From IMG/VR virus record IMGVR_UViG_3300033067_001661, positions 269,624 to 333,623 of that record: DNA of 64,000 nucleotides. One strand, 5' to 3'. The stretch is from a virus. Its lineage: Duplodnaviria; Heunggongvirae; Uroviricota; Caudoviricetes. The position numbers and the translations under genes are program-made. Positions 27,391 through 61,234 of the stretch are shown piece after piece. The notes beneath the pieces are model-generated. The model made no database searches. It was given only the letters and a program-made list of their open reading frames with translations, and was not told the origin of the DNA. The number at the start of each line of letters is the position of its first letter. The stretch's first letter is position 1.

Positions 27391-28002
27391 ATGAAATGGT
27401 ATGAAAAAGCAATCCCAAGAATACGAGACATTCAGCCTTATCTAAAAGAGGCTTCGAAGAATATTTCTAATTTCAAGCAAGTTAAGAACATATATGCTTG
27501 GGGTTCTCTCGCTGAAAACTTCAACAAGAAAGACCATAGAATCAAAGACGTAGACATACTTATTGAATGCAACTTTGATTCTGGCGATTTACTAGCTATT
27601 GACAACAGCTTCAATGGCGCTCTAAAAATGTCTTCTGAAGAGCTAGAAGACTTAGGATTCAATCCGGCAGCCGTTCTCTTTACGAAGTCAATACTAAGCC
27701 ATAAAATGCCTTCTATTGATTTCTGGGCAGTCTCAAAGGACAAGAAACTACTGCACTGGGGACCAATAACCGAGACAGTTGAAGAGTGGAAGCAGGTTAG
27801 AAAAGAAGCCGAAAACAAAGCCGAGATTCTAACAGGTTTCAAAAACAAAGAGGTTCTTAGCGCTTCAGAAAATGACCGAAAGAAATGGCATGAAGCATAT
27901 GAAAAGTATCTTCAGGATTTCTCAAGCGGTTGTCCTCAAGGATGGTACTCTTCTCAAAACAATGTAGATAAGATATTCGAAAAAGCCGTTAAGCTTTTAT
28001 GA
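27391..28002 (+). CDS. Minimal nucleotidyltransferase-fold (pol-beta superfamily) protein.
   Basis: GS-x(n)-DxD motif: AWGSLAENFNKKDHRIKDVDILIE. N-terminus MKWYEKA shares the recurrent MxWY motif. Confidence 0.5.
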   Translation: MKWYEKAIPRIRDIQPYLKEASKNISNFKQVKNIYAWGSLAENFNKKDHRIKDVDILIECNFDSGDLLAIDNSFNGALKMSSEELEDLGFNPAAVLFTKSILSHKMPSIDFWAVSKDKKLLHWGPITETVEEWKQVRKEAENKAEILTGFKNKEVLSASENDRKKWHEAYEKYLQDFSSGCPQGWYSSQNNVDKIFEKAVKLL

Positions 28003-28409
28003 GCGATATCTTCTTGAAAAATCCAGTTTGCGCTATCTGCGGTTCAAAAAGCGTATCTAAAACAAATAAACACATCTTTTATCTCATAGACTGCAAAGAC
28101 TGCGAGCATGCTTATACTTTGATAGAAGAGAAAAGCCTAAAGAAGTTTACCAAAGAAAACTCTCTTGAGTATAGCTTCTGTCCATATTCAGATATTATGA
28201 AAAAGCTTCGCAATGAACGATTTGAAGTTCAACTTCGTTACGGAGATTACAACAGTCATCTCTGCCACTATTTTTCAGAGAAAAGCTTGAGAAAGTTCTT
28301 GTCAAACCTTGGCGTTGATTTTGACCTTCAAATAGAAGACAAAATAGCTACATTTACCATTCTTCTTCCTCGTCGCCGTCAGCAAGAAGCTCGTCAATGT
28401 CTTCCTTGA
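27999..28409 (+). CDS. Zinc-ribbon protein (CxxC...CxxC), translationally coupled to the upstream NTase-fold gene.
   Basis: CAICGSK ... CKDCEH. ATGA start/stop overlap with 27391..28002. Confidence 0.4.
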   Translation: MSDIFLKNPVCAICGSKSVSKTNKHIFYLIDCKDCEHAYTLIEEKSLKKFTKENSLEYSFCPYSDIMKKLRNERFEVQLRYGDYNSHLCHYFSEKSLRKFLSNLGVDFDLQIEDKIATFTILLPRRRQQEARQCLP

Positions 28410-28782
28410 GAACATACATTTGTCGCCAGTCTATATCTATGAAATCGGGATACTCGTCATAGATATAAGACAAAACTTCGTCGTTGATATAGATTGCTAT
28501 ATCTTCACAAGTCATATAAGGAGACGGTTCTTTGATTGGAACTCTAACTCTTCTTTCGCAAAAATACCCAATCAGAATGTTGGATACAGCGCTACTACGT
28601 CGTTTGCCGACAATTTCTAAAGGCTCCTGCTCCACAAAGTAGTCTCTTATCGAGATCAAACTCGTAATGAACGTCTTTTGCCACTCCTCTCGGGTCTTGC
28701 TCATAAAATCTCCTTTACAGGTATATCGAGCAGAGGAAGTGTTTTTCTTTGCAGCGTAAATAGAAAAGACGATAATATACAA
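28354..28782 (-). CDS. Hypothetical protein with an acidic C-terminus (DGDEEEEW).
   Basis: 142-aa ORF. Convergent 56-nt overlap with 27999..28409. Confidence 0.3.
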   Translation of the reverse strand: MYIIVFSIYAAKKNTSSARYTCKGDFMSKTREEWQKTFITSLISIRDYFVEQEPLEIVGKRRSSAVSNILIGYFCERRVRVPIKEPSPYMTCEDIAIYINDEVLSYIYDEYPDFIDIDWRQMYVLKEDIDELLADGDEEEEW

Positions 28783-28796
28783 AAGGAAGGCAAATA

Positions 28797-29306
28797 ATGA
28801 TCAAATCTATCTTAGATGCAACCTGTCAAATCTTTGTAGCAATTCTTGGAAAGTTTCGTTCCAAAAAGACAGTCGAGGCACCAGCCGTAAGTCTTCAAAA
28901 CGAACAAGCGATTACCATAACAATCAAAGCCGACGAAGAGAATGTAGAAACAAGCATTCCCGTCATTACAAAAGACAAACTACTGTTTCAACCCAATACG
29001 ATGCAGGCAAATAGTCCTCTAGAATGCCCTATTCGTTCTAAAAATCAACAAGCGTCAACAGAGATATCTATTGACGCTCCTAAGATTGAAAACTTCAAAA
29101 TAACGATTGAATGCAATGAAACAGCCATCAATCATCTCAACAACCTTTGTAGGTTCTTTGAAGTGAATCAGCCAGACGCCCTTGCAAGAGGGGTTTGGTT
29201 GCTCACAATAGCGAGAGATGTTGAAGTTAACAATAAGAAACTTGGTATCATAACGACAGACCAGAATGGTCTAATTGTTGACGTTATGCCAATCAATATT
29301 GTTTAA
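28797..29306 (+). CDS. Hypothetical protein (169 aa).
   Basis: ORF with AGGAAGG-like SD upstream. No recognised motifs. Confidence 0.3.
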   Translation: MIKSILDATCQIFVAILGKFRSKKTVEAPAVSLQNEQAITITIKADEENVETSIPVITKDKLLFQPNTMQANSPLECPIRSKNQQASTEISIDAPKIENFKITIECNETAINHLNNLCRFFEVNQPDALARGVWLLTIARDVEVNNKKLGIITTDQNGLIVDVMPINIV

Positions 29307-29894: not shown

Positions 29895-29943
29895 TCCACA
29901 CTTAGGTTAGTGTGAAATACAATATATGTGTTGAGATTCCTTC

Positions 29944-30093
29944 TTATTTATCCAGAATTGTAATTCCATTTAAGTGGTCAATCTCATGCTGAGCGCAACG
30001 AGCTTCTAAGTCTCTTAGATGCTCTTTTACTTTCTTGCCCTCATAATTGATATACTCAATGAGTATGTACCTGCTTCGAACAATTTCTTTTCG
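29944..30093 (-). pseudogene. def: Peptide deformylase C-terminal fragment (motif 3 QHEIDHLNG) without its N-terminal half on this strand.
   Basis: Minus-strand translation ...CLFPGFRKEIVRSRYILIEYINYEGKKVKEHLRDLEARCAQHEIDHLNGITILDK matches the PDF C-terminal half (CLS.PG...V.R...EGK...QHE.DHL.G). Upstream on this strand is only antisense of the acidic gene. Confidence 0.6.
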
Positions 30094-30334: not shown

Positions 30335-30340
30335 ATTAAA

Positions 30341-44745: not shown

Positions 44746-44786
44746 AAAGAAAAACCGCCGGTCCAACCCGAAGGTCAAACCGGCGG
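44746..44786 (-). terminator. Rho-independent terminator downstream of the high-GC AAA+ gene.
   Basis: CCGCCGGT...ACCGGCGG 8-bp stem followed on the minus strand by TTTTTCTTT. Confidence 0.6.
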
Positions 44787-44835
44787 CTGAGATAAGAAGA
44801 ACGGATTATTCCGTCAACTTATGCGAGGTTGGTGA

Positions 44836-46801: not shown

Positions 46802-49210
46802 TTATACAACTCTTCTGTGTCTCAAAGCTCTAAAGAAGGGATAGCCGTCATTCGTCATGAGGCCCGGCTTAATTACTAAGCCAGGATTTTCTTCTTTCAT
46901 CTTCTTCATCAAAAGAGTCCCAACACCCTGCCTTCGGTATTTTGGAACAACCTCAATCATGCTAATATGCAACTCATTGTCAAATATGTTGTAGCTCAGT
47001 TGTCCAACAAGATCTTTCGTTTGTGTATCGTAGGCTCGTATAACCATGTCCGATTGCCCATGATGATACCCGATACACTCTGAATCCTCAACCTCTATAT
47101 TACTCTTGATAGGCTCTGTGTTTCTCTGGGTCTCGTCCGGCGAAAACTCGCTTGCTAGTTTGCACAAATCGTACCAGCCGCTTGCTCTTCGTTTCGTTTT
47201 TCCCTTGAGCGCTTCCTTCTTTTTACGAGCAATCCCCTCAAGAGTCCAAAGTATCGTCGGGTAGTGAGACCTTTCTTGTTTCTTGTTGAAGTATTTACTT
47301 ATCCATCTTGGTATTCTGATTTGAGTTTGCATAAGAAGTTTTTCAACATCTTCTATAACAGCGTCGTCAAGGCAATACGGAAGGTTCTCTTGTCGATGAG
47401 AGTCGGCTGCTTCGTCTTGGATCTTCTGCCTTTCGTCTTCCCAATCGCTGACCGCTTTTTGATACTCTTCAGGATCTTCAAAATCATCTTCCTGAGGTTC
47501 GTCTGGAAACTCTAAGTAAGAATCATCATAGTAATCAAAGAATTTCTCGTCGTTTTCTTGCCTCTTTTCATATATTTGCGCAATCTGAAACTGAGCGTCA
47601 AGAACCTGAGCCATGAACCTCTTTTGATTTTTCTCGTCAAGCTGATCAAAGCTCTTAAGCTTGCTGTAATCAAACTCTTTAGCTTGACTCATATTGTAAT
47701 AAGCTTTTTCAATAGTTTTCTGCTCAACAGCTTGCGGACTCGTATATCTTTCCCATCCTTGCCATTTATCTTTGAGAGCTTGATTTGTCTCTCTTTGAAC
47801 TGCTGCCGCCGCCTCTGGTATATAGTCTTTGAGGTATATCTTTTTGTTCTCAGGCGACATCCTATCGAACTGTTCTTTCTTCATGACGCTATGCTTTGCA
47901 GACCTATGCGCCCAATTCAGCGCCATTGCTTTCATTTCTTTTTCGTTAATAAGACCTTGATTGAGTTTTTGTATATCAGAATCAACAGCGGCTCTGGCTA
48001 ATACTTTCGAGACATGATGCGTTTGATATCCGCCGTCATTGCGGTATCCTCGATCATTATTGAGTTTATTGTAAACAGCTTCGTATGCGTCTTGATATTC
48101 CCATTTTGTTAGAGATACTGGTAGGCCATAACCCTCCGCTCCCTTATATATGGCTCTTTCAAGATCGTCGTCCATGCTTCCGTAGCTAAGATCGCTATAA
48201 TCAAAGTCGTCCATACCCTCAATAGCAGCGCCTTTGAGAGTTCTCATCCATTCGCCAATCATTGCTTTTAGATTGTCGCTTGGATCGGCATTTCCTGTTT
48301 TAGGACCGTTGCCGTAAATTTGTCTAAACGTCCAACTATTAGGGCTAACCTCCATTGTTACATAAGGCATGTTAGAAGGGTCTCGAAGCGAAAAAATTCT
48401 AGTATTACCCTTCATAACGTCATCGCAATAGCTTCCGACGCAATGACCCATCTTACCGCCTTCGGTTCTTAGGTTGTTTTTTGTTACAACTTGCTTGATT
48501 GTCCAACCGGCCCAATCAGGCCTACTCCATTGAGGACCAAATACAACGTCTTCTCTTTTCTCGCCGTAATACTCAAGCCCCTCGCCTTCTCCAGAAATAA
48601 CATCATGCCAGTTTTCAGCAAACTGATCTGCTTGGTCAAGAGTTAGTCCGGCAAGGTTGGTGTTTGCATTTGTAACGCCGTATTCATTGATAACGATGGC
48701 TTTTTCTTCTGGCGTCTGAGCGGCTTGAAAAGCTTGTCTCGCAGGAAGAACGCCTCTTACATACCAGTCAAATATACTCTGAGCAATATCTGGAATCAGA
48801 GTAAAGTTGACATTTCCTCGCCCAGGAATTGAATATCCGTCGCCAGTTAGAGCCATACCGTCAGGCTTCTTTTTGATCTGATACTCATTTCTTGCTTTTC
48901 TTAGAGATACAAGTAACCACTTTTGAAACTCAAGGTTCTGAAACCTATTGGCAAGCTGAAGCTCTTGAGGAGTGTTTGGGTTTTGCTGAGGTTGCTGGTT
49001 CTGCGGTCTAATCTTGTCCATAAGCAAAGCTGACGGAGTTTGAGGAAACTTGCGCAGATAACCAATAACTTGTTGCTTTAGTTCTGGATTCGTTATCGTT
49101 GTAACAAAACTTACCGTTTCTTCAGGAACTCCAATTCGCGCAAGAAAAGCTTCAACAGAGTTGTCGCCTGCTGCGGATTCTTTTATGATTTGACCATAAT
49201 ACCAGTTCAT
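46802..49210 (-). CDS. Large protein (802 aa) with a C-terminal GNAT acetyltransferase domain.
   Basis: C-terminal IEVVPKYRRQGVGTLLMKKM (GNAT motif A R/Q-x-x-G-x-G/A). N-terminus MNWYYGQ. Confidence 0.55.
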   Translation of the reverse strand: MNWYYGQIIKESAAGDNSVEAFLARIGVPEETVSFVTTITNPELKQQVIGYLRKFPQTPSALLMDKIRPQNQQPQQNPNTPQELQLANRFQNLEFQKWLLVSLRKARNEYQIKKKPDGMALTGDGYSIPGRGNVNFTLIPDIAQSIFDWYVRGVLPARQAFQAAQTPEEKAIVINEYGVTNANTNLAGLTLDQADQFAENWHDVISGEGEGLEYYGEKREDVVFGPQWSRPDWAGWTIKQVVTKNNLRTEGGKMGHCVGSYCDDVMKGNTRIFSLRDPSNMPYVTMEVSPNSWTFRQIYGNGPKTGNADPSDNLKAMIGEWMRTLKGAAIEGMDDFDYSDLSYGSMDDDLERAIYKGAEGYGLPVSLTKWEYQDAYEAVYNKLNNDRGYRNDGGYQTHHVSKVLARAAVDSDIQKLNQGLINEKEMKAMALNWAHRSAKHSVMKKEQFDRMSPENKKIYLKDYIPEAAAAVQRETNQALKDKWQGWERYTSPQAVEQKTIEKAYYNMSQAKEFDYSKLKSFDQLDEKNQKRFMAQVLDAQFQIAQIYEKRQENDEKFFDYYDDSYLEFPDEPQEDDFEDPEEYQKAVSDWEDERQKIQDEAADSHRQENLPYCLDDAVIEDVEKLLMQTQIRIPRWISKYFNKKQERSHYPTILWTLEGIARKKKEALKGKTKRRASGWYDLCKLASEFSPDETQRNTEPIKSNIEVEDSECIGYHHGQSDMVIRAYDTQTKDLVGQLSYNIFDNELHISMIEVVPKYRRQGVGTLLMKKMKEENPGLVIKPGLMTNDGYPFFRALRHRRVV

Positions 49211-49243: not shown

Positions 49244-51406
49244 TCAAAACTCTCTTATTACAATATCGTTTCCAAAAGTCTGATGAATATTGTTCTTACA
49301 AACTTCTTTCATTCTTTTGCAATACATTTCTCTAGCGGCATTCATGGGCATGAGATTTCGATTAAAACAAGCATCGCAAGCGGTTAGGCTCGCCATTCTT
49401 TTGCAAGTATCAACCCTTCCTTTGTAAATATAATCGTCTGATAAATCGCCTTCGACCTTCCATGTACCATGATTGTTTACCAGGTCTGTTTCTTTTGTAT
49501 GCCTGAAAGAACCATTCCTGTAAAAGAACCAAAGATAGTTACAGCCATACTCGCCTTTTTCAAAACCAGAATGACCAATGTTTAAGTAATTGTCGTCTAG
49601 GTCATAAACTTGTTCATTTTGAGCTTTCTTGTACCAATTTGTATTAGAAGCATTTTTGGCGGTTATTCCAAAGTTCTTTTCATAATAGGTTGGAACCGCT
49701 TTGTCTTTATCATTTAGTATGTAGGGTTCCATTTCAGGCCATCTCGCCTTCATAATAACTACAGCATACTGACCAGCGGCCCAGCCATTTTTATGCTCCA
49801 TGATTTTCTGTTCAAGTTCAGGCCATCTTTGCTTTACTGCGTCTCTTGCGTAATAAAGAGCTTCAGATAGTCCTCCCCATTTGTCATTAAGGAGTTTTGG
49901 TTCAATTTCTGGCCATCTTCCCTTAATAACCTCTTTTGCATATTGGTACATATCCCATATTTTGTTGCTTTGAATAATAGCTCTTTCAAGTTCAACCCAT
50001 CTAAAATTACAATTCTTGGCATAATCTATGGCATATTCAAAATCATAACTCTCTTGACCAACCTTAAGTAGATAGTCTTCAAATCTCTTTTCTGCTCTTC
50101 TATTACCATTTAGATGCCAAAGATAACTAACAACTTCTTCTGCGCGACGAGGATTCTCAAACATCGCAGCTTCATACTCGGGCCAAGTTGAATAGTCGCC
50201 ATTTCCAGGTTTGCCCTCTCCAAAGTTATAACTTGAATATCTGTCTTTCCAATAATCATGAGCATATGTTGAGTTTATAACCTGAGCTTCGTGCCTCTCT
50301 TCTGTCCAACGAAGGCCTCCAGAAAGGACCGCTTCCATGTACTCTTCTATGCGAGAACCATTGATAACGCCATAGTTCTTGAGCATCTTTTTATCAGACA
50401 AGATTGGCTTGAATATGATTCTTTCCTCAACAGCTTTAAGTCTTCCAAAGTCTCTTGCATACTCAAGTATATCATTAAAGAGGTAAGAGGGAAAATCTCC
50501 GTCGTTTTCTTGAAGTTCTTTTTCAAAGTAGTTTGCAAAATCTTCAGCAGCACCGTCATAAAATACGTTCTTAGCATAGTTGCCAAAGAAGTCTTCGTCT
50601 TTAATGTGACCAAGCTGAACAAGCTTTTTGAGAACTTCAATAAAAGATTGCGGAGGCTGGTCTATGGACTTATCAAGAATGTCCATTACTTGATCTAGGT
50701 CTTTTGTTGTTTGAGCATACTTCTGCCACTTGCCGCCTTCATTATGTAAAAACAAGAACAAAGGACCGCTCTTCAAATACATTTGTGCATTTTCAAGACC
50801 GTCATTATCAGCATTAGTACACCACTTTGTTCCTTTGCCAAGCTCGCAAACAGCCTCAGGCGTTGTCATCTCAATAACACGCCATTCGTTGTCTCTGTAA
50901 ACCTCTCTGCTGCCTTGCATCTTTACGTTCTTGGCAACCTGTCTTTTGCTTTCTTCATTAACACCAGTAACCCTACTAACAGCTTCTTCAAGATCTCCAA
51001 GAGAAGGGTACTGCTGTATATTCTTTAGCTCAAACTTGTTGTTTTGCTGCGTAAAAACAGACAAAGCTCTTGTTAGTCTACCAAGGTCTTCTGGAAGTCT
51101 TATTACGCCACGATGTAGCCATGCATATACAGGAAACAAGAAGCGATTCGGTATTTTGCCTTGAACTTCATGCAAAAATCCCTTATATCTGTTGAGATGA
51201 AACTCAAGCCTTGAGGCTCCTTTTTCATTTGTAAGTTTCGATAACTCAACAGCCGTTCCTCGGTCCCAGTTATTCAATGACATTAAATAGGCTTGAGCGC
51301 CTTGGCTAAAACCTAAGGCTTGAAGATTGAGATCAGCTATGCGAAGAAACCAACTCACCTTTTCTTTTTCCTTTTCTTCTTGGTACTCTTTGCCTTGACA
51401 TACCAA
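49244..51406 (-). CDS. Large hypothetical protein (720 aa) containing four tandem ~27-aa helical repeats (YAxxVIKGRWPE-x-EP).
   Basis: FEYAIDYAKNCNFRWVELERAI / MYQYAKEVIKGRWPEIEPKLLN / ALYYARDAVKQRWPELEQKIME / GQYAVVIMKARWPEMEPYILN. Confidence 0.5.
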   Translation of the reverse strand: MVCQGKEYQEEKEKEKVSWFLRIADLNLQALGFSQGAQAYLMSLNNWDRGTAVELSKLTNEKGASRLEFHLNRYKGFLHEVQGKIPNRFLFPVYAWLHRGVIRLPEDLGRLTRALSVFTQQNNKFELKNIQQYPSLGDLEEAVSRVTGVNEESKRQVAKNVKMQGSREVYRDNEWRVIEMTTPEAVCELGKGTKWCTNADNDGLENAQMYLKSGPLFLFLHNEGGKWQKYAQTTKDLDQVMDILDKSIDQPPQSFIEVLKKLVQLGHIKDEDFFGNYAKNVFYDGAAEDFANYFEKELQENDGDFPSYLFNDILEYARDFGRLKAVEERIIFKPILSDKKMLKNYGVINGSRIEEYMEAVLSGGLRWTEERHEAQVINSTYAHDYWKDRYSSYNFGEGKPGNGDYSTWPEYEAAMFENPRRAEEVVSYLWHLNGNRRAEKRFEDYLLKVGQESYDFEYAIDYAKNCNFRWVELERAIIQSNKIWDMYQYAKEVIKGRWPEIEPKLLNDKWGGLSEALYYARDAVKQRWPELEQKIMEHKNGWAAGQYAVVIMKARWPEMEPYILNDKDKAVPTYYEKNFGITAKNASNTNWYKKAQNEQVYDLDDNYLNIGHSGFEKGEYGCNYLWFFYRNGSFRHTKETDLVNNHGTWKVEGDLSDDYIYKGRVDTCKRMASLTACDACFNRNLMPMNAAREMYCKRMKEVCKNNIHQTFGNDIVIREF

Positions 51407-53670
51407 CCAGCCTTAGAAGAAGCCTCTCTTCTTTCTTTCTTTTCTTCCTTGCTTGGAGCAAGAACATGCAAACCCTTCATCGCTCTTGTATATGCGACAT
51501 ACTTAGCATTTTCTTCTTGCAAAAGCTCTTCTGGCGTTTTGGCTTTAGGATGAGGAAAGAGATTCGGTTCAAGAATAAAGACTCTATCAAACTCCAAACC
51601 CTTAGACCTATGCGCAGAAGTAAGAGTTACATAGGATAGAGGGTCTTTCTTCTTCAAAGCCTCTGCTTCTTCCGCATTATCCATATTGACGCCAGCAAAC
51701 TTTTTCTTGATATAGTCAATAAAGCCCGTGCTGTCGTCAACTCTCATATTCAACTGAGGGTCTCTATAGCCAGAAGCCGCTAAATACTCAATAACATTAC
51801 TCAAGGCTTCGGTTGTTGCCTTCATATCCTTGAGTTCTGACTCTCTTGCAATCTTGCCCTTCCAAGCTGTTTCTCTTTCGCTAAGGAAGTTGTTGATCGT
51901 TTCGCCAAGAACTCGTATAGGAACCTTCTTCGCCATTCTGCCCTTGCCCGTTATCTTTTCGATATGGTCAACAAGCTCTTTTGAGAAGTCTCTACCAATG
52001 ATGACAAACTCAACATTGTTCTTCATAAGCTCAAGAGCAGTCTTTACAAGAGGAGAGTTCGTTCTTGCAATAAACGCTGTTTGTTCCGCAAGCCTATTTC
52101 TTTGCCTCTTCTCGTTGAAGATATCGCCCATAGCTTCTTCAACCTTGCGGCCTTCGGTTACTTGACCGTCAAAGTCCCTACCAGCCTGAAGATTCTTAAC
52201 ATGGGTCTTTTCATTGACGTACTTGATAATGGCTCTTCCGCTTCTGTAGTTAACAGGAAGTTCATGAGGAACATTACCGTTCGGAGCCTGACCAAGAACG
52301 CCTTGAACCTTCTGGAAAGCTTGAGCGTCAGCGCCTCTAAACATATAGATAGCTTGATTTGGGTCGCCTACCGCAATAACCCTCGCGCCTGCCTGAGATA
52401 ACTTCTGCAACATAATCGTTTGACAAGTATTGAAGTCTTGAACTTCGTCAGCCAAAACAACGTCAAAATGAGGCCACTTTACGTCGTTGATCGCAGAATA
52501 CCATAACGTATCGTCATGGTCTCTCATAGAGTTAAGCTCTGGTGTTGGCGCATTTCCGGGCAAGCAATAATGCAACAAGTCAAGAGCCTTGTCTATAATC
52601 TGAGGCGCATAGTTGACGCCCGCTGCGTTTGGTTGCTTATCCTTATTAGGAGATAAGTCTGTGTCAATATTGTACTGACGGATAATCTCTGTCATTTGCT
52701 GAGCAGCATTTTGCGACTGAGGATGAACCGCAAACGCCTTACTCAAAGAAGCAAGTTGCTTGATTGTTTGCTTTGCAACGTATTTTACAGATTGAGGGAA
52801 CGTGTTGTCCCTTTCCATCATGTGGTCAAGAATCTGAGTAATACGCTCGCCAAAGTTGTTCCATAAATCTGTATGCTGAATCATGTTAAGTTCAGAGCTT
52901 CGACCTAGAACTTGTCCAAGGAAGCTGTGGCTTGTCTTAACTTCAACACCGTTCGGGAACTTACCCTTGCCCGTAGAAGCTTCAACTTGGTTCTTCTTGT
53001 TGAAAACCAAGTATAGCCACTTTTCGCCAGGCGGCTTAAAGCTTGCCAAGTGACGAAGCATGGTCGTCTTACCAGACCCGGCAAGAGCGTTGATCATAAT
53101 GCTCTGAGGCGTATTAAGGAATGAGTTCTCAATATCTTTTTGTTGAGGACTGATTCTGTTGGCTGGAATTCGGCCAGGAGCTTCGGGTTGTTGCTGTTCA
53201 GCTTCTTGAGCTTTAGGATTGAGTTGATGATACTTGTTAAAAAGAACCGCAGGATTTGTGCCTGAAACCTTTTGACCGTTTTCTTCAACTGACTTAATAG
53301 TTTTCGCAACTTCAGCGTTTGGGATTGTTCCAAAGTCGCCATTTTCTGTTTGATAGTCCCATCCCGTCGCTCCCTTAGCGGCAACAACAGGCTCGCCAGT
53401 TGCAATCATTGTTGCAAGAATCCATGTTCTTTGTTTTTCAGGCTGCGGCATAGCAGCCTGCGGCGGACGAGGCTGGGGAGCTTGAGGTTGTCTGTTCTGA
53501 GGAGCGGCAGGAGCTTCATTAAGCTTCCTTACTCCTTTGCATTGCGGATATTTGCTGCATCCAAAAAACTCACCATACGGTCCCTTCCTCTTCGCCATCG
53601 GAGAACCGCATAACGGGCATGGGCCGTTCGCCTTCTTCTTCATATTGCTCGCTTTCTTTAACCAATCCAT
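51355..53670 (-). CDS. UvrD/PcrA-like superfamily-1 DNA helicase with an N-terminal topoisomerase/primase-type zinc ribbon.
   Basis: CPLCGSPMAKRKGPYGEFFGCSKYPQCKG (zf-C4_Topoisom-like). Walker A LAGSGKTTML. Walker B VLADEVQDFN. Motif VI TSAHRSKGLEFDRVFI. Confidence 0.8.
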   Translation of the reverse strand: MDWLKKASNMKKKANGPCPLCGSPMAKRKGPYGEFFGCSKYPQCKGVRKLNEAPAAPQNRQPQAPQPRPPQAAMPQPEKQRTWILATMIATGEPVVAAKGATGWDYQTENGDFGTIPNAEVAKTIKSVEENGQKVSGTNPAVLFNKYHQLNPKAQEAEQQQPEAPGRIPANRISPQQKDIENSFLNTPQSIMINALAGSGKTTMLRHLASFKPPGEKWLYLVFNKKNQVEASTGKGKFPNGVEVKTSHSFLGQVLGRSSELNMIQHTDLWNNFGERITQILDHMMERDNTFPQSVKYVAKQTIKQLASLSKAFAVHPQSQNAAQQMTEIIRQYNIDTDLSPNKDKQPNAAGVNYAPQIIDKALDLLHYCLPGNAPTPELNSMRDHDDTLWYSAINDVKWPHFDVVLADEVQDFNTCQTIMLQKLSQAGARVIAVGDPNQAIYMFRGADAQAFQKVQGVLGQAPNGNVPHELPVNYRSGRAIIKYVNEKTHVKNLQAGRDFDGQVTEGRKVEEAMGDIFNEKRQRNRLAEQTAFIARTNSPLVKTALELMKNNVEFVIIGRDFSKELVDHIEKITGKGRMAKKVPIRVLGETINNFLSERETAWKGKIARESELKDMKATTEALSNVIEYLAASGYRDPQLNMRVDDSTGFIDYIKKKFAGVNMDNAEEAEALKKKDPLSYVTLTSAHRSKGLEFDRVFILEPNLFPHPKAKTPEELLQEENAKYVAYTRAMKGLHVLAPSKEEKKERREASSKAGWYVKAKSTKKKRKKKR

Positions 53671-53745: not shown

Positions 53746-54243
53746 TCACACTTTCCCTCTAAATCGCTTGTCGTTCCTCATCCATGCCGGTATATAAGCT
53801 CCAGGATTCCTCTCCAACTCTTTTAGCTTCTCAGCCGTCATGCGCTCTTGCTCCGCTGTCCATCCCCCAACCTGCTGACCAACCTCCAAGTTATGCCTTA
53901 TGTCCGCTGGCTTTCCTATCGAAGCGTCCATGCTGTCGAACTTCTCAACGCCCTTGCAGTATTGCATTGGAATGTCGCCAACCGTCGTCACAACCGTACC
54001 AACCCGACCTTCTATTAAATTTCGCGGAAGTACAAAAGAAAGGATTACCGTTTCGTCGCCCTCAAAGAACTGCTTCCCAAACGCCTTCGCTAGCTCTTTG
54101 TTCGTCGTAAGGTTCGGTACGTCCGATTTCCTCAAAACGCCAGACTTCTTCATTAAAAGATAGTTCTCACGGCTGGTGCCATGATACAAAGTTACAAAGG
54201 TCTCGTTAGCGGCCTTATACCACATGATACTATAGTATCGAAA
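53746..54243 (-). CDS. Hypothetical protein. Likely start at the internal ATG (MWYKAANE).
   Basis: ORF 53746..54270. The internal ATG at ~54243 gives the MxWY N-terminus. Confidence 0.4.
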   Translation of the reverse strand, partial: FRYYSIMWYKAANETFVTLYHGTSRENYLLMKKSGVLRKSDVPNLTTNKELAKAFGKQFFEGDETVILSFVLPRNLIEGRVGTVVTTVGDIPMQYCKGVEKFDSMDASIGKPADIRHNLEVGQQVGGWTAEQERMTAEKLKELERNPGAYIPAWMRNDKRFRGKV

Positions 54244-54307
54244 TATAAACGGCCTTTCCTTTCTCAACAATCAAGGATTAGAGTATAGTTTTTCGATACA
54301 TAGTAGT

Positions 54308-55414
54308 ATGAACTGGTACTCTAGAGCAAAGTTTGCAGCAACGCCTATATGGAACGTCCAATATAGCAGAGACTCCATATCCAGCATGCTTTACGCCCTC
54401 TATGAACTTACTTATAAATACCAATACTTACAACACCATAACTTTCAAGGCTACCCAAAGAGACTTGAAAATATCCTCAAACAAATAGAAAACTCCGCAA
54501 GAACTGTTATCGCAGACTTTGTGGATATACTCGTTCCAGTCTTCGAAAACTGGCTTTCGGGTCACGCCCTCCTTACCCCTCGAACTTGGGCAACAAAAAG
54601 AGTACAAGAATGGTATGAAATCGAAGGAGGCAGTCCCGCTTCCCTCGCTAGTATGATCGTGGGCGAATGTAATATTCAAAGAGAAAGACGAAACTTTAAC
54701 ATATCACCAGAGCTTCATAGACTTGACGAACCTATAAAGAACGGTCAAGCTCGTGTACTCAGTAGATTGTTTGAAACCGCAAAGCTTGAACTTATAGAAG
54801 GTGACATGGAAAACGCTCTCTACGAAAAAAGACAAGAAGAAGAGGAAGTAGACGAAGAGCAGCTAGAAGCAGAAATAAAACAACGCTATGAAGAAATGCC
54901 ATTCTCTGAATATCTTAGTACCTTTTATAATGACGACCTAGGAGATTTTCTTGAGATGGCTTCTCAGTTTTATGACCTTGAAGAGATTTACGTAGAGTTT
55001 GCTCAGTTCTTATGCTTCCCTATTTGGTACGGCTTCTGGAAGCCCCAAGGTATAGACCAAACAAGACAAAGAATAGAGAATGCCTATAACATGCTCAAGA
55101 GCGTTGAGAGTCAGCCTATCGGTCAGGCCCTCGCTACAATCAATATTGTTATCAACTCCGCCCACCAAACCGGAGATATGCTCGATTATATAGCTGACGT
55201 TACTCAAGACACAAAAGGCGAGATTCGTCGAGCAATGGACCTTCTTAGTAATGCTACCGAGTTTGAGGAGTGGGACTTGGACCTTCGAGAGGTTGGATTG
55301 CAGTTGCCGCCAAAGCAGTCCCCAATGGCTATACAAAATACACAAAAACCCAACCAAGTTGGGCTTCCTCCTGTTGCGCGAAATCTTATGTTCGAGCCGC
55401 CTAAAGAGGTCTGA
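54308..55414 (+). CDS. Hypothetical acidic protein (368 aa).
   Basis: ORF on the plus strand, N-terminus MNWYSRAKF. Glu-rich segment EEEVDEEQLEAE. Confidence 0.45.
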   Translation: MNWYSRAKFAATPIWNVQYSRDSISSMLYALYELTYKYQYLQHHNFQGYPKRLENILKQIENSARTVIADFVDILVPVFENWLSGHALLTPRTWATKRVQEWYEIEGGSPASLASMIVGECNIQRERRNFNISPELHRLDEPIKNGQARVLSRLFETAKLELIEGDMENALYEKRQEEEEVDEEQLEAEIKQRYEEMPFSEYLSTFYNDDLGDFLEMASQFYDLEEIYVEFAQFLCFPIWYGFWKPQGIDQTRQRIENAYNMLKSVESQPIGQALATINIVINSAHQTGDMLDYIADVTQDTKGEIRRAMDLLSNATEFEEWDLDLREVGLQLPPKQSPMAIQNTQKPNQVGLPPVARNLMFEPPKEV

Positions 55415-55426: not shown

Positions 55427-55759
55427 TTAGAGAGGTCTGACGCTCTCAAGCCTTGCTTTGCTTACCCTTACCTCGCCGCCATTCGCAGAATCGCCTCCTG
55501 ATACTATATCAGCTTCTTCATACGAATAGGTGAGCAAAAGCTCTTGCCCGTCCGTCATATTACTGTAATAGTCTATAACGAACTGTTCTGTCGTTCCTAA
55601 GAAAGTATCGCCAACGACGCTGCCAATGGTAAGGTTGTATTGGAGGTTGCGGTTGGCTAGAGAATAAGCCTTGCCGTTGGCAAAGCCAACGACCTTAAAC
55701 CCTGTTCTTCTATTTTGCGCGAATTTATACCACATTGCGATTCTTGTACTCTCTGCCAA
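55427..55759 (-). CDS. Hypothetical protein (110 aa).
   Basis: ORF only. Confidence 0.3.
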   Translation of the reverse strand: MAESTRIAMWYKFAQNRRTGFKVVGFANGKAYSLANRNLQYNLTIGSVVGDTFLGTTEQFVIDYYSNMTDGQELLLTYSYEEADIVSGGDSANGGEVRVSKARLESVRPL

Positions 55760-56618
55760 GCCATCTCAAAGCTGCGGGTAACTGTTTAGGCCATACATAC
55801 CTATATAGCTCGCTCTTCATAACTTGTACACTCTTATTACCAAAACCTCTTATCAAAGCTTTCTTCGCTTCGTCAAAAGTCCATCTTCCGCCATACCTAT
55901 CAACAAAGCTCTGTACAAACTTGTTAGGGTCAAACTCCTCGTCTACCCTAAATACCCTTCTTGAAGCCAAGGTCGATTCATGATTACTGTTACCCTTGAA
56001 CTCGTAACCCTTGTTGCTTGCCAAGAACTGTTGTCTTGATACGTTAGATAGCTGACCGTTGCGGTTGTCTCTTAGCCATACCCTGATAATGCGGTTCGGA
56101 TTCAAGTGTCCAACGAATAAAGCTTGGCTCTCGCCAAATCCTAATAGCGTATTCGCAAGCTCAGGTCTTTCGCTCTGAGCGATGGGCGGAATATTACGGT
56201 CTACCGCTCGTTGCCTTGCTCGAACTCTTTCTTCTTCTCTTTTGGCTTTGCTGTTGCCAAAGTATTGAGCCATCTCACCTTGAACGGTATAAGAACCGCC
56301 TGGCCAAACAGGAGCCTCAAGCTCGCTCATGTTCGCATGAAACTCGACTATCCAAGCTCCAAACTCCGAAGCTTTCTTTGGGTCTGTTGTTACAAATAAT
56401 CCTGTAGGATTGTTGTCGGCTTCATATGAGTAAACCCTGCCAACTCTTGACTTGCCAGATAATCCGTAACGACATGCGGCTATGGCGTCCTCCAAATCCC
56501 TAAAACCATGAAAGACCCTTATTACGTCGTTGGTCTTTAGGGTTGGTCTTTCTTCAGGACTTCTACCAGGAGGTAAAGTAAGCCTGTCTGCAAACTTAGC
56601 AAGATCATACCAACTCAT
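55725..56618 (-). CDS. Hypothetical protein. Start corrected to the internal ATG (MSWYDLAKF), which abuts the upstream stop.
   Basis: ORF track 55725..56726 overlaps the upstream gene by 112 nt. The ATG at ~56618 gives a 4-nt overlap instead. Confidence 0.4.
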   Translation of the reverse strand: MSWYDLAKFADRLTLPPGRSPEERPTLKTNDVIRVFHGFRDLEDAIAACRYGLSGKSRVGRVYSYEADNNPTGLFVTTDPKKASEFGAWIVEFHANMSELEAPVWPGGSYTVQGEMAQYFGNSKAKREEERVRARQRAVDRNIPPIAQSERPELANTLLGFGESQALFVGHLNPNRIIRVWLRDNRNGQLSNVSRQQFLASNKGYEFKGNSNHESTLASRRVFRVDEEFDPNKFVQSFVDRYGGRWTFDEAKKALIRGFGNKSVQVMKSELYRYVWPKQLPAALRWLGREYKNRNVV

Positions 56619-56998
56619 GCAGGCCGTCCTTCCCTCATAATCTTCTGAACGAAGTTCATGACTTGAGAGTTTGGAGGCATGCTCTTGAGTTTGTTGTATT
56701 CTTCGTGAGAGCCTATCCAATACCATATAAACTGAGATTGAAACTTAACAGCTAATGCTCTGTAACGACCGCCAACCTGAGCAGACCAAACTTCTAGCTT
56801 TCCCCTATTTTCGGGTAATGGTTTAATGCCGACTTGTTGAGGATTGGAAAGAAGCGTTTGATATTTTTGAGAGGCTAGCTGTTGAACTTGAACTGGCAAC
56901 AAGGATAGCGAGTCTCTGAAGCTCTTGGTATGCCAATGCCCAGTATCGAATCCGGCTTCTACAAGCCTACAATAGTTTTCAGAGATTATAAGTTTCAA
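56615..56998 (-). CDS. Small protein with a RelE/HigB-like toxin-fold C-terminal signature.
   Basis: GKLEVWSAQVGGRYRALAVKFQSQFIWYWIGSHEEY resembles the HigB/RelE-family C-terminus (LKGDREGYWSITVRANWRITFQFINGDAYILNYEDYH). Confidence 0.4.
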   Translation of the reverse strand: MKLIISENYCRLVEAGFDTGHWHTKSFRDSLSLLPVQVQQLASQKYQTLLSNPQQVGIKPLPENRGKLEVWSAQVGGRYRALAVKFQSQFIWYWIGSHEEYNKLKSMPPNSQVMNFVQKIMREGRPA

Positions 56999-57455: not shown

Positions 57456-58277
57456 TTATGAGAAGTAGCAGTTTAAGAAATCAAAGATATCCTGAACGCC
57501 AATGTTTCCGTCATTATTGAAATCCCCGCTACCGCTAAAGTAGCTATTAAGAAAACTAAACAACCCTTCTAAGGTTCTTGAGGACTCGCAGCAAGAGTAG
57601 TTCTGAACGCAAATCCAAGTTCTCCTATTCCTTGTTACAGACTCTATCGAGCATGGACTGAACGCCTCAAGAACAACTCCGTTTGAGGTTGTATCCATAA
57701 GATAGCCAATGTAAGCAGGAGAACAAGAATCGTCATGACCCGCTCCTAAGGTATGAGCTAACTCATGAGCCGTTACCCTCCCTAAAATGAGAGAGTCGTT
57801 TGTGGCTATACCGTTCACAACGCATACTCCAGGTCCGCAGGCTCCTCCTAAGAAAGAGAAACCTCCTAAAGACGTATTCGTTACTCTGCCGGAAATTAAC
57901 ACAACACTTCCAGGTCTATACTGATTGTATAAAGCCGTATTGCTCCACTTTGCTATCATCTCTGTTAGAAAGCCTGTTGTCGTTGGAGGCATACCGTAAC
58001 CGTCATTATTGGTTGTATTAATCACCACTCCCGCATTTACTATATCAAGAGCAAAGTCCCTCAAATAGATTGGTCTCATGTAAGCTAAAGACTGTTGCAC
58101 AAAGGACATACAAGCAACGCTTCCCCTGCTTTGGTAGTATTGATAGTCAAACTCAAATACAACCCTGTACGGTATGACTTGATTACAAGTATATGTAGGA
58201 GGCGGAGGTATGCCGCCAAATGCATAGCTTATTGTAGCCAAGACTGCGATTATCGTGTTTCTTATACAAAAGTACAT
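57456..58277 (-). CDS. Secreted zinc metalloprotease (metzincin/reprolysin-like HExxHxxGxxHD) with a C-terminal dockerin/EF-hand-like Ca-binding repeat.
   Basis: Signal-like N-terminus from the internal ATG (MYFCIRNTIIAVLATISYAFG). VTAHELAHTLGAGHDD. C-terminal GDFNNDGNIGVQDIFDFLNCYF (DxNxDGxIxxxD loop + helix). Confidence 0.65.
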   Translation of the reverse strand: MYFCIRNTIIAVLATISYAFGGIPPPPTYTCNQVIPYRVVFEFDYQYYQSRGSVACMSFVQQSLAYMRPIYLRDFALDIVNAGVVINTTNNDGYGMPPTTTGFLTEMIAKWSNTALYNQYRPGSVVLISGRVTNTSLGGFSFLGGACGPGVCVVNGIATNDSLILGRVTAHELAHTLGAGHDDSCSPAYIGYLMDTTSNGVVLEAFSPCSIESVTRNRRTWICVQNYSCCESSRTLEGLFSFLNSYFSGSGDFNNDGNIGVQDIFDFLNCYFS

Positions 58278-59247: not shown

Positions 59248-59376
59248 AAGAGTTCTCCCTTTGTTATACTACTAGGGTTCTCTATGGGCGTAATCAGTCC
59301 TTTTCTCTATTCAATTTGAGCTTAAAGTTGGGGAAGCGTTTTGGCTGCTTGGAGAATTTAGCAGCTAGAATGGGGT

Positions 59377-59411
59377 AAGGTATCCCTCTGTGCGCGAATT
59401 TTAATTGACGG
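59377..59411. repeat. Intergenic repeat copy A (AAGGTATCCCTCTGTGCGCGAATTTTAATTGACGG).
   Basis: One of three near-identical ~35-nt copies spaced ~950 bp apart. Overlaps the stop codon of paralog 1. Confidence 0.7.
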
Positions 59412-60303
59412 CATCATCTTGAAGCGGTTGCCCAATAATTCTTTTTTCTTGAAGTCTCTTTAGTTTATTAAGTATTGAGTTATAGAAGCCAACCCTCTCT
59501 CCTTCAGGTCTCATTGTGAGAGCATATCTCCAAACATATTGTTTTCTTTCTTCTTCATCCATTGAATCTAAAAAGTTCCAGAAACCTCCTCTTGCAGCCC
59601 ATGAAGCCTTCATCTTTTGCGATAAGTTCTCAAGGTATTCTGGATCATCAAGATACTTTCTTCTCTTCGTCATTACATTTTCTGCGTACTCTGGATTCTG
59701 CCATTGTTCTCTTCTTAGGTTCGCGTTCGTTTCTGCAACATTCTTTGCAAATTCTGGATCTTCCCACATTTTCTTCATTTTGTCAGAATGAAGCTTTTGA
59801 TATGCTGGGTCTTTCCATGTTTCTTTTCTTTTATTTGACTGCATTTTAGCATACTCTGGATCTTGCCAAAGAGCTTTTGATTGTTCCCGAGTTCTATTGG
59901 CGGCTTGTTCCCTAAATACAGGGTCTTGCATTTTGGTTCTCATAGATTCTCCTTTATCTCTTATTGCAATTCCTTTGCTTTCAAGAACCTTTCTTATCAA
60001 TAAAAACGAAAAACCTAAAGCTTTTTCTATGTCATGTATGCTTTTGCCAGCATTATACATGCTAATGATCTGCTCTTGTATCTCATTTGGCACTTGCTTT
60101 CTTGTTTGACCGCCACCATGACTTGATTTGTTAACATTTTCTTCTTTTAGAACCTTTTCAATTGTGTAAAAGGAAACGCCAGTTTCCTGTCTTATCTTAG
60201 AAACATTTTTGGTTTCGTTGTACATTTGTACAATCTTATCCCTTGTTTCTTTCGGGATAACATTGGGAGGTCTTCCTTTATTTTGAGCAAGTATATACCA
60301 CAT
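59401..60303 (-). CDS. Free-standing NUMOD1-repeat (tandem HTH) DNA-binding protein, paralog 1, with C-terminal W-x-DPE(Y/F) repeats. No nuclease domain.
   Basis: YNETKNVSKIRQETGVSFYTIEKVL and YNAGKSIHDIEKALGFSFLLIRKVL match the NUMOD1 pattern (S..EAA..LG.S...I...L). Five repeats of ~14 aa (WQDPEYAKMQ..., WKDPAYQKLH..., WEDPEFAKNV..., WQNPEYAENV...). Start corrected to the ATG at 60303 (MWYILAQN). Confidence 0.55.
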   Translation of the reverse strand: MWYILAQNKGRPPNVIPKETRDKIVQMYNETKNVSKIRQETGVSFYTIEKVLKEENVNKSSHGGGQTRKQVPNEIQEQIISMYNAGKSIHDIEKALGFSFLLIRKVLESKGIAIRDKGESMRTKMQDPVFREQAANRTREQSKALWQDPEYAKMQSNKRKETWKDPAYQKLHSDKMKKMWEDPEFAKNVAETNANLRREQWQNPEYAENVMTKRRKYLDDPEYLENLSQKMKASWAARGGFWNFLDSMDEEERKQYVWRYALTMRPEGERVGFYNSILNKLKRLQEKRIIGQPLQDDAVN

Positions 60304-60328
60304 GTTAGTAATTATTCGTCTAAAAGGC

Positions 60329-60371
60329 AAGGTATCCCTCTTGCGCGAATTTTAAGTGACGGCGTACCCTT
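60329..60371. repeat. Intergenic repeat copy B (AAGGTATCCCTCTTGCGCGAATTTTAAGTGACGGCGTACCCTT). Lies between the paralog 2 stop and the paralog 1 ATG.
   Basis: Near-identical to copies A and C. Ends (AAGGTA ... TACCCTT) form an imperfect inverted repeat. Confidence 0.7.
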
Positions 60372-61234
60372 TACTTAATGTTTCTTTTAACGTTAGGAAT
60401 AGTATTTTTGAGTTTATTCATTATGTTATAGTAAGATCTTTTTGCTGGTGTTGGCCAGTTTTCAAAGCTAGCATTTTTTGGTAAATGATACTGCCGTATA
60501 ATTATTCCTGCAACAATACCATCCTGAACGCTTTTGTCTTTTGAGGCAAGCCAGGCCCACCACTCGTCTCCTTTTCTTGGAGATACATCAATATCGTTTC
60601 TTACTAAGAATTTATGTATTAAGTTTGGAGAAACTTGTAATAAAGCAGCAATTTCTCTTATGCTCTTTCCTTCTTGGAATAGGTTGGTTATTTTTTGTTG
60701 TTCTTCTAAATTCCAATCTCTAGGAGTGTCTATTCTTCTTTGTATTTTAGCAGCTTCTAAAACTCTTTGTATTGCTTGTATGCTTTTCAAGTTAAAAGCA
60801 GTCGCTATCTCACTAAGGCTATACCCATCATTATACATTTGACAAATTTCTTCTTTTTGTTCGTTCGTAAAAACTATTGTTCTAGCGGTTTGGTAGTTAG
60901 TTCTTAGAGGAATGTTGTTTTGTATTAAAACCTTTGCAATACTCTGAGGGCTAACATTATACAATCTACTTAAGGAATCCATGCTAGCGCCATTTTTATA
61001 CGAAATAATGATGTCTTTTATTTGTTCAGCCGTCCAGTCAATCGGTTTCTTGGGACTTCTCATTTGAACATTATTTTTATTCAAGATTGTCATAATCGTA
61101 CTTTTACTAACGTTATAGTTATCTGCTATTTGTATAGCCGAATATCCAAGATGATAAAACTCAACAATGTCAGCAATATCTTGCGGAGATAAGTTTGTTC
61201 TTGGGCGAGTATTTTGTGCAATAATGTACCACAT
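60371..61234 (-). CDS. Free-standing NUMOD1-repeat DNA-binding protein, paralog 2 (four tandem HTH units).
   Basis: YHLGYSAIQIADNYNVSKSTIMTIL / YKNGASMDSLSRLYNVSPQSIAKVL / YNDGYSLSEIATAFNLKSIQAIQRVL / FQEGKSIREIAALLQVSPNLIHKFL. N-terminus MWYIIAQN. Confidence 0.55.
   Translation of the reverse strand: MWYIIAQNTRPRTNLSPQDIADIVEFYHLGYSAIQIADNYNVSKSTIMTILNKNNVQMRSPKKPIDWTAEQIKDIIISYKNGASMDSLSRLYNVSPQSIAKVLIQNNIPLRTNYQTARTIVFTNEQKEEICQMYNDGYSLSEIATAFNLKSIQAIQRVLEAAKIQRRIDTPRDWNLEEQQKITNLFQEGKSIREIAALLQVSPNLIHKFLVRNDIDVSPRKGDEWWAWLASKDKSVQDGIVAGIIIRQYHLPKNASFENWPTPAKRSYYNIMNKLKNTIPNVKRNIK

Follow-up and report, generated by a model that had tools for sequence, protein, structure and literature searches.

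A recurrent tryptophan-tyrosine peptide tag common to unrelated proteins of an uncultured freshwater phage and of other uncultured phages

Results

A cluster of genes with a common N-terminus

The stretch of DNA analysed here (64 kb, referred to throughout as the window) is part of an uncultured freshwater phage, IMG/VR record IMGVR_UViG_3300033067_001661. It encodes ribonucleotide reductase (RNR), ThyX, a sigma factor, two AAA ATPases, SNF2 and UvrD helicases and an M12-like metalloprotease, along with a cluster of genes whose otherwise unrelated products begin with nearly the same residues, namely Met, an optional residue x, Trp and Tyr (M(x)WY). We show that this motif is a short linear peptide tag that is selected at the peptide level, is phage-specific, is common to unrelated protein families and does not depend on the N-terminus, and structure modelling does not pack it into the fold of its carriers.

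The recurrence of an M-x-W-Y start in many proteins of the window had been noticed in the initial annotation, and counting makes it stronger than first claimed. The expression (ATG|GTG|TTG)(NNN)?TGGTAY matched the window at 12 sites, nine of which open a long open reading frame (ORF), and M(x)WY is the start of nine of the 51 ORFs of at least 80 amino acids (aa). Given the residue composition this number has a binomial p of 5 × 10^-17, given the observed WY dipeptide rate of the window a p of 1 × 10^-13, and if five alternative starts per gene are allowed still a p of 2 × 10^-7. For the ATG-only DNA pattern, 11 matches compare with 0.97 ± 0.91 in Markov-1 shuffles. Two further members are the GTG-started 704-aa ORF (formylmethionine (fMet)-SWFLRIAD, starting at 51358) and the UvrD-like helicase, whose MDWLKKAS had been listed as a near variant; counting both, the motif stands on 11 of 15 consecutive genes between 41.8 and 61.2 kb, and on none of the genes at 1-24.9 kb (Table 1).

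These starts do not hinge on the choice of initiation codon. The ATG of the motif is the first ATG of the ORF in four of five cases in which the start had been corrected, the 297-aa gene overlaps with its start (56618) the stop of an upstream 127-aa ORF as ATGA, and independent gene calls on orthologous contigs returned matching starts (159, 102, 930 and 801 aa, and the GTG start VSWF), the GTG start of the 704-aa protein being called independently in the contigs L004 and L058. The nine starts include MWYKFAQN on a 102-aa protein (ortholog in L004, MWYKIAQN), which had been missed before, and three protein sizes given earlier as 934, 298 and 165 aa are corrected to 930, 297 and 159 aa.

Table 1. 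Tagged genes, untagged neighbours and other features of the window, in order of position
Feature	Coordinates	Strand	Tag or description	Tag core
3422-aa ORF	3398-13666	-	S/N/T/G-rich	
Second, paralogous AAA ATPase	16891-18321	-		
Two adjacent paralogous genes	19383-20809	-	match phrog_4603	
Phage lysozyme-domain protein	25021-25854	+	possible offset tag MQQENG-WYIRAKSL	25039-25056
203-aa protein	27391-28002	+	N-terminal MKWYEKAI	27397-27414
SNF2-family helicase, 1039 aa	38705-41824	-	possible degenerate N-terminal tag MNNYFDITKIAQ; weak member	
SNF2-family helicase			possible C-terminal tag RQAST-WYDRTILAGSV-stop; weak member	
930-aa protein, three tags	41845-44637	-	N-terminal MSWYRIIR	44614-44631
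930-aa protein			internal CKEG-WFKKVQ at aa 479	
930-aa protein			C-terminal KNASKG-WYRKAATTY-stop	41857-41874
Terminator-like hairpin	44753-44788	-	16 pairs, 9 GC, T-run	
AAA ATPase (phrog_10440)	44836-46452	-	untagged, within cluster	
802-aa PcfJ + GNAT fusion	46802-49210	-	N-terminal MNWYYGQI	49187-49204
802-aa protein			junction RRASG-WYDLCKLA ahead of GNAT module	47159-47176
704-aa protein	49244-51358	-	GTG start, fMet-SWFLRIAD	51335-51352
704-aa protein			internal KNASNTN-WYKKAQNE leading 130-aa C-terminal module	49619-49636
UvrD-like helicase + Zn-ribbon	51355-53670	-	N-terminal variant MDWLKKAS	53647-53664
UvrD-like helicase			C-terminal tail EASSKAG-WYVKAKSTKKKRKK	51388-51405
159-aa protein, TLYHGT motif	53746-54225	-	MWYKAANE	54205-54222
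Divergent intergenic region, 82 bp	54226-54307			
368-aa all-helical protein, large uncharacterised family	54308-55414	+	MNWYSRAKFA	54314-54331
102-aa protein	55427-55735	-	MWYKFAQN	55715-55732
297-aa protein	55725-56618	-	MSWYDLAKFA	56595-56612
127-aa ORF	56615-56998	-		
Reprolysin-like (M12) Zn metalloprotease	57456-58277	-	untagged, within cluster	
300-aa multi-helix-turn-helix (HTH) DNA-binding protein	59401-60303	-	MWYILAQN	60283-60300
287-aa multi-HTH DNA-binding protein, paralog of 300-aa protein	60371-61234	-	MWYIIAQN	61214-61231

The lysozyme-domain protein is a weaker member because its tag lies 6 residues in. Neither Pfam nor PHROGs gave a match to the 203-aa protein, which leaves the nucleotidyltransferase fold proposed for it earlier unsupported. 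From its TLYHGT motif we read the 159-aa protein, which had no Pfam match of its own, as ADP-ribosyltransferase (ART)-like.

Consensus and predicted structure of the tag

The conserved peptide exceeds M-x-W-Y and reads M, then N/S/T, W, Y/F, K/R, x, A/S/I and Q/K. In 79 tagged proteins aligned on the Trp (position 0, W in all 79), Met is found 63 times at position -2, and position -1 is occupied by N (41), S (16), M (10, the MWY forms) or T (4). Y (73) or F (6) follows at +1, K (45) or R (10) at +2, K (34), I (11), R (9) or L (9) at +3, A (46), I (10) or S (9) at +4 and Q (29) or K (21) at +5; beyond +5 the residues are variable and largely polar. The residue ahead of the Trp is of the classical helix N-cap type (N, S, T, D or G), and W, Y, A and Q/K at i, i+1, i+4 and i+5 would fall on one face of a predicted two-turn amphipathic helix.

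For the 368-aa family, AlphaFold gave residues 1-12 a mean predicted local distance difference test (pLDDT) score of 36, compared with 81.7 for the whole model, although M1, W3, Y4 and K8 are invariant across 16 sequences of 33-82% identity. A segment that is invariant yet unplaced in the model carries the usual signature of a peptide that binds something else. The model of the 159-aa family (6 sequences, pLDDT 33.8) was uninformative, Foldseek found no PDB match to the 368-aa model below E = 0.4, and no shared C-terminal motif able to pair with the N-terminal tag was found. The tagged N-termini show no Sec, Tat or lipoprotein signature (h-region, RR or lipobox), the residues after position 8 being polar and variable, e.g., MNWYKKAQNKKT and MWYIIAQNTRPR.

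Unrelated families carry the tag

After removal of the first 12 residues, the 79 tagged proteins fell into 45 families that BLAST does not link, which bears out the earlier statement that the motif is common to otherwise unrelated families; the 9-11 tagged proteins of the window alone belong to at least nine families. Carriers with known domains comprise ART (ART-PolyVal), GNAT, P-loop kinases resembling polynucleotide kinase (PNK) or zeta toxin, PcfJ, UvrD with a Zn-ribbon, multi-HTH DNA binders, a nucleotidyltransferase of the poly(A)-polymerase type, cREC, SLT, phage lysozyme and an intein/LAGLIDADG insert, and the majority of carriers have no known domain. The ART, GNAT, metallopeptidase and helicase domains belong to the repertoire of polyvalent proteins, which are predicted to be injected with the DNA (PMC5512222).

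Conserved copies within proteins and at C-termini

A strict core, W[YF][KR].[AS][QK], was counted in 89,461 residues of these phages' proteins and occurs 36 times, compared with 0.28 expected in shuffles; nine of these occurrences are internal or C-terminal. In the window, copies away from the N-terminus end the 930-aa protein and the UvrD-like helicase, precede the GNAT module of the 802-aa protein and stand before the last 130 residues of the 704-aa protein. A C-terminal ..A-S-x-G-W-Y-K/R-K-A/L.. tail is kept in 12 of 12 homologs of the 930-aa protein (33-97% identity), the internal G-WF-K/R-K/R-I/V-Q in most of them and the N-terminal tag in most full-length members, and four lineages (L004, L006, L007 and L058) conserve the C-terminal tag of UvrD. 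Judging by this conservation, the internal and C-terminal copies are under selection. The extreme N-terminal signal that was first proposed does not hold in that form, and the same core, conserved without a start codon inside fused proteins and at C-termini, speaks against N-degrons and other signals that depend on an exposed N-terminus, and also against an element acting purely in translation initiation.

Modules that are fused in the window occur elsewhere as separate tagged genes: PcfJ and GNAT are two genes in L001 (MNWYKNSAKE and MKWYKIATNSF), and the 130-aa C-terminal module of the 704-aa protein is a gene of its own in L006 (MSWYKRAKTF). Where database proteins place another module ahead of the 368-aa domain, a Met-less NWYK..AQIW remains at the junction and a further tag stands at the N-terminus of the fused protein (P0062, P0070, P0056 and P0083); Met-less junction tags are also present in P0048 and P0110, and in P0023 MSWYKIAKEV stands at the very N-terminus, preceding an inserted 170-residue domain. 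The rule that emerges is one tag leading each module.

In L058 (gene at 3632-5434), a 97%-identical contig, the 130-aa module of the 704-aa protein is deleted exactly after the internal WYKKAQ, and the reading frame then enters former intergenic DNA, a fresh example of how a C-terminal tag may originate. The homolog of the 704-aa protein in L001 carries DUF4116. In L004, an 82%-identity relative, the ortholog of the 802-aa protein (181-4056) is 1291 aa long because of an intein (Hint_2, LAGLIDADG), and the copy in the window is intein-free.

Distribution among uncultured phages

Because the related contigs (72.6, 85.4 and 85.7 kb) do not break at the same place, the genome is probably about 72-86 kb. 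Orthologous loci of 45-82% identity carry the tag on the same genes plus additional ones, and the tag is conserved in orthologs down to 33% identity. At more distant loci, lineage-specific variants are found on many neighbouring genes, namely MKIYRIAQ or MKIFRIAQ in L009, MI[TRK]K[YF]S in L008 and MRWF in L007.

A second class of shared N-terminus, MK[IKV][IV][TN]..SY.K, was seen in L001 (11910-18610) on proteins of 718 (DUF4116), 1386 and 120 aa, and MKIIDTHSG-WFKEAQL in L007 joins this class with the tag pattern. L007 also has type IV pilin-like prepilin N-termini (MAKGFTIIELLVV at 11406-11960 and MKGFTLIELLVV at 16583-17128) near its tagged cluster; this 494-kb IMG/VR contig may belong to a very large phage or to a host chromosome that holds a prophage.

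Scanning IMG/VR for the exact pattern M-x-W-Y-K-K-A-Q brought up 18 stretches on 15 contigs (23-548 kb, 24-44% GC), where neighbouring genes that had not been selected by the pattern also start with MNWYKKA or MNWYR, in arrays of 4-7 consecutive genes. The feature is thus not, as had been supposed, specific to this phage, since arrays recur on contigs of many unrelated uncultured phages. In 596 Gb of bacterial and archaeal genomes the same scan found 26 stretches, among them one true array, on a 19-kb contig binned with Halanaerobium; the other matches examined are chance internal ones, e.g., dCache sensors with R-x-WYKKA and a glycosyltransferase. One true array in such a volume of prokaryotic sequence indicates that the tag is phage-specific and no targeting signal of the host. 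In the family of the 368-aa protein (532 representatives at 50% clustering), the tag stands at the start of 100 of 170 diverse sequences examined.

Cultured phages gave no further members. A megablast of 15 kb of the window against 50,697 phage records had no match, as had tblastn of the 368-aa protein and of a tagged L009 protein against the phage collection, and searches with the helicase and the AAA ATPase matched only distant cultured phages. LR756511 and LR756500, found through the AAA match, showed no tag in the 41 kb examined, and Brevibacillus phage Jenst, which has a cultured homolog of a tagged ART-like protein, lacks the tag on this homolog and on its neighbours.

Selection acts on the peptide

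Within the tag, Tyr is encoded by TAC 13 times and by TAT 18 times, Ala uses all four GCN codons, Ser both AGY and TCN, and synonymous differences separate even close orthologs. The x residue is gained or lost through a 3-nt in-frame indel between orthologs of the 159-aa protein, which begin with MWYK.. or MNWYYLAN (MWYKAANE versus MNWYYLAN), the residue exchanges seen are conservative (W to I, Y to F, K to R), and the DNA upstream of tagged genes is not conserved. Together these observations identify the peptide as the object of selection. What stands of the signal proposed in the initial annotation is therefore peptide-level selection, to which the invariance among orthologs and the failure to pack in the AlphaFold model also testify; what falls is its being bound to the N-terminus and restricted to one phage.

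Neighbouring genes and intergenic elements

The cluster contains two untagged genes of possible relevance, the AAA ATPase, a candidate reader of the tag, and the reprolysin-like metalloprotease, a candidate processing enzyme. With the second AAA ATPase they form a split pair of AAA and metalloprotease functions in or near the tagged cluster, and phrog_10440 homologs in N4-like phages are annotated as FtsH-like. The strong hairpin between the AAA ATPase and 930-aa genes suggests separate transcription units inside the cluster. The 127-aa ORF, which ends in ..RALAVKFQSQFIWYWIGSHEEYNKLK.., looks like a toxin of the RelE/ParE type, and a similar segment, VWYYICTHEEYNRV, lies within a larger ORF of L001.

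Outside the cluster, the 3422-aa ORF has a DUF3383 match at residues 1240-1335 and no PHROG match; it is probably a giant structural or fibre protein, and a self-BLAST revealed no internal repeats usable as docking sites for the tag. The two adjacent paralogs matching phrog_4603 (annotated as alpha-2,3-sialyltransferase) adjoin a phosphatase and the sigma factor. No tRNA genes or Rfam families were found in the window.

A sigma-70 scan gave 28 sites, compared with 31.6 in shuffles, and the sites near tagged starts lie too close to serve them. The notion that TGG-TAT-AAA mimics an extended -10 box was rejected, as the final T is missing and the Tyr codon varies. In the divergent intergenic region, TTTCGATAC(T)ATAGTA directly precedes the ATGs of both the 159-aa and the 368-aa genes in inverted orientation, one copy holding a perfect 14-nt palindrome, GATACTATAGTATC. 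The element recurs as TTCGATA..TATA upstream of orthologs in L001, L004, L006 and L007, and TCGATA..TATAGTA precedes only a few tagged genes; its role could be that of an operator, or of a promoter giving nearly leaderless mRNAs.

Discussion

The tag leads each independently evolving module of an accessory gene set of the host-takeover type, standing directly after the initiator Met where the module is a gene of its own, staying in the linker where modules have fused, and in some proteins appearing at the C-terminus as well. One shared partner acting in trans may read all copies and gather different enzymes at one place. Our preferred partner, by analogy with other phages, would be the assembling procapsid, the tag acting like the capsid-targeting sequence (CTS) of T4 or the packaging signal of P1 DarB and loading effectors that are ejected with the DNA, which a protease might free at the A-S dipeptide preceding internal and C-terminal copies. 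We favour this capsid-targeting function tentatively, as the leading candidate rather than the probable answer, because the T4 CTS is the sole well-studied case of diverse phage effectors sharing only an N-terminal peptide of about 10 residues, because ART, helicase and muralytic enzymes are classes known to be delivered by virions, because P1 DarB follows the same principle with a large helicase-type protein, and because release might take place at the A-S that is conserved shortly ahead of internal and C-terminal tags. In L017 an array adjoins the major head protein and a protease-fused giant protein.

Several observations weigh against capsid targeting. The L017 array is the only one next to head genes: the cluster in the window lies at the upstream, early-looking end of a unidirectional block, beside helicases and far from the giant DUF3383 protein, and other arrays adjoin tRNA nucleotidyltransferase, polynucleotide kinase, NAD synthetase and HNH genes. 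After the N-terminal tags no protease site recurs consistently, packaging does not require the redundant tags of fused modules, and the depletion of Shine-Dalgarno (SD)-like sequences at tagged genes described below is unexplained by this model. Near-identical tags in phages of 24-44% GC imply a highly conserved partner, and a host protein could suit this equally well. Finally, the searches described above found no cultured relative in the phage collection.

A first alternative, which we regard as unlikely, takes the tag for a recognition mark of an unfoldase, protease or chaperone, either the AAA ATPase and Zn metalloprotease of the cluster or ClpX, SecB or trigger factor of the host, that gives timed turnover or keeps modules unfolded. 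Tags occur where they are accessible, at termini and in linkers, the AlphaFold model leaves them unstructured, and both candidate enzymes lie untagged within the cluster. The order polar, two hydrophobic, basic, hydrophobic resembles the N-terminal recognition class of ClpX, octamers rich in aromatic and basic residues are typical binding sites of SecB and trigger factor, and if the partner were a conserved host protein, the near-identity of tags between very different phages would be accounted for. However, degrons and chaperone sites are usually degenerate, whereas the Trp is invariant here (79 of 79), host proteomes do not use the motif at gene starts, and homologs of the AAA ATPase occur in N4-like phages, whose genomes were not checked for the tag.

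It is decidedly unlikely that the tag is in essence a translation-level element, be it an enhancer of the downstream-box kind or a ramp for early elongation, in which the first codons or the nascent M-N-W-Y-K aid initiation or early elongation on mRNAs without SD sequences. SD-like sequences are indeed depleted in tagged genes (16 of 68 versus 105 of 216 across all loci, Fisher p = 2.4 × 10^-4; 1 of 9 versus 21 of 36 other genes in the window), and the first 12 nt are nearly identical within one genome. The codons of the tag are also biased relative to the rest of the same genes, with AAC at codon 2, AGT for Ser, and at codons 2-8 AAA at 84% against 69% and GCA at 62% against 27%, although such statistics are inflated by shared ancestry. 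In E. coli, K or N followed by Y or I at codons 3-5 raises protein yield (PMC6920384), and the N/K ... Y pattern, the A-rich early codons and the SD-poor genes are reminiscent of this. The tag differs in its invariant Trp, which separates N from Y and is not among the yield-promoting residues, and in its conservation away from starts; the lineage of the window has N-W-Y or M-W-Y, and only the distant MKIYR of L009 fits in part. Even between deeply diverged sequences, C-termini and module junctions keep copies that have no start codon, the register to the AUG varies (MWY, MxWY, MxxWY), and the codons for Y, A, S and K vary synonymously, whereas a downstream box would show conserved nucleotides, a fixed distance to the AUG and confinement to gene starts. 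The downstream box offered earlier as an alternative is accordingly disfavoured in its pure form, whereas the SD depletion, supportive as a correlation only, and the 5' codon bias would fit a secondary effect.

An aromatic-basic helix might instead serve as a ligand-binding arm that tethers enzymes to nucleic acid (phage DNA, tRNA or the ribosome) or to the membrane, which we consider improbable. The W-Y pair is followed by K/R, C-terminal copies such as WYVKAKSTKKKRKK have lysine-rich flanks, and many carriers act on nucleic acids (helicases, HTH proteins, PNK-like kinases, the nucleotidyltransferase and cREC). Nevertheless, a membrane helix needs more than eight residues of which only two or three are hydrophobic, sequence-independent binding of nucleic acid needs neither an invariant Trp nor a conserved Ala at i+4, and the lysozyme and SLT carriers do not fit.

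Very unlikely, in our view, is a processing mark, according to which the tag and the preceding basic-x-A-S form a cut site between fused modules and the tags of single modules are inherited remnants. Assemblin-type proteases cut between A and S, and [KR]-x-A-S-x(0-3) precedes internal or C-terminal copies (KNASKG, EASSKAG, RRASG, KNASNTN, KKASRGG, KEASMT and RQAST), the A-S preface holding throughout the 930-aa family. The same modules are fused or separate in different genomes, a metalloprotease lies within the cluster, and polyvalent proteins are proposed to be autoprocessed (PMC5512222). Conservation of the tag is strongest, however, in single-module genes, where nothing needs cutting, a cut before a C-terminal tag would free only a peptide of 9-20 residues, and the A-S preface is weak at the junctions of the 368-aa family.

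Highly improbable, lastly, is microhomology at the DNA level, with the conserved 12-20 nt at gene starts as recombination junctions for cassette shuffling and the peptide as a by-product: within a genome, up to six adjacent genes open with almost the same four codons, tags coincide with module boundaries, several arrays are flanked by homing endonucleases and the L058 deletion begins exactly after WYKKAQ, but the motif is conserved as amino acids with synonymous differences across 24-44% GC, is maintained in orthologs at 33% identity and at C-termini, and 12-20 nt are short for homologous exchange. At its right end the L058 deletion stops in intergenic DNA and not in another tag, which leaves tag-to-tag recombination unsupported.

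None of these alternatives matches the invariant Trp, the conserved Met-less copies and the phage specificity as well as capsid targeting does. In its most general form, that reading would make the tag a portable eight-residue address in numerous and diverse uncultured phages (genomes of about 40 kb upwards, contigs to about 550 kb, 24-44% GC) that routes arbitrary modules to one destination, the capsid interior being the most attractive; we hold this to be possible but doubtful. If it is true, the arrays would be a non-covalent equivalent of polyvalent proteins, each module having its own loading signal, and the tag would define the injected effector set straight from sequence and could be used to load foreign cargo. 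As an address signal, the rule of an N-cap, W, Y, K/R, x, A and Q/K at the module start would mark a class of phage genes that otherwise defy annotation, point to one conserved receptor common to many phages, and explain how accessory modules are freely split, fused and exchanged, each with its own tag. Literature searches with strings of the motif sequence found no relevant paper, and the motif, its module-leading behaviour, the arrays and the breadth in uncultured phages appear to be undescribed.

Comparison with known systems

Short peptides that bring unrelated proteins to one partner are familiar from the beta-clamp-binding motif, the partners of the C-terminal tip of SSB and the cargo-loading peptides of encapsulins. 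Like these, the tag occupies termini and linkers of unrelated proteins and is unstructured alone; its consensus differs, and arrays of tagged genes are no feature of those systems.

With polyvalent proteins the tagged set has in common ART-PolyVal, GNAT, metallopeptidase and helicase modules that occur fused or solo. Here, in contrast, the modules are mostly separate genes and each is tagged, and no such linear motif appears in the passages of PMC5512222 that were consulted. A multi-domain layout is seen in the 802-aa PcfJ and GNAT protein, P0055 and P0023, most carriers being single-module, and a link to portal or MuF proteins was not seen; of the tagged loci only L017 lies beside head genes, the window and the other arrays do not.

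In P1, the 30 N-terminal residues of DarB bring a reporter to the capsid (PMC9024508). There, too, an N-terminal segment sends a large anti-defence protein of the helicase/methylase type into the capsid, and the carriers described here include UvrD and possibly SNF2. The P1 signal is 30 residues on one protein, whereas here a short motif is found on dozens.

The closest parallel is the CTS of T4, whose internal proteins are diverse defence proteins that share only this 10-residue sequence, with residues 4 and 7 being important, and whose Alt has propeptides at both ends (PMC3012670, PMC9026906). Differences are evident. No sequence homology to the CTS was established, the N-terminal tag has no consistent prohead-protease site after it, and the window has no protease gene except the M12-like metalloprotease; A-S stands 1-4 residues upstream of most internal and C-terminal tags. 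The tag is also an internal, Met-less module leader and not strictly N-terminal, its carriers include large helicases, and it is spread over many unrelated uncultured phages and not one family. The likenesses are equally specific: in both systems a peptide of about 10 residues at the terminus is all that diverse, fast-evolving host-takeover, anti-restriction or anti-defence proteins have in common, the critical T4 residues 4 and 7 have their counterparts in the positions 4 (Tyr) and 7 (Ala) conserved after the Trp, and several proteins here are tagged at both ends, just where Alt carries its propeptides. That diverse effectors can share a terminal tag is a concept already known from the T4 CTS, P1 DarB and the markers of secretion systems.

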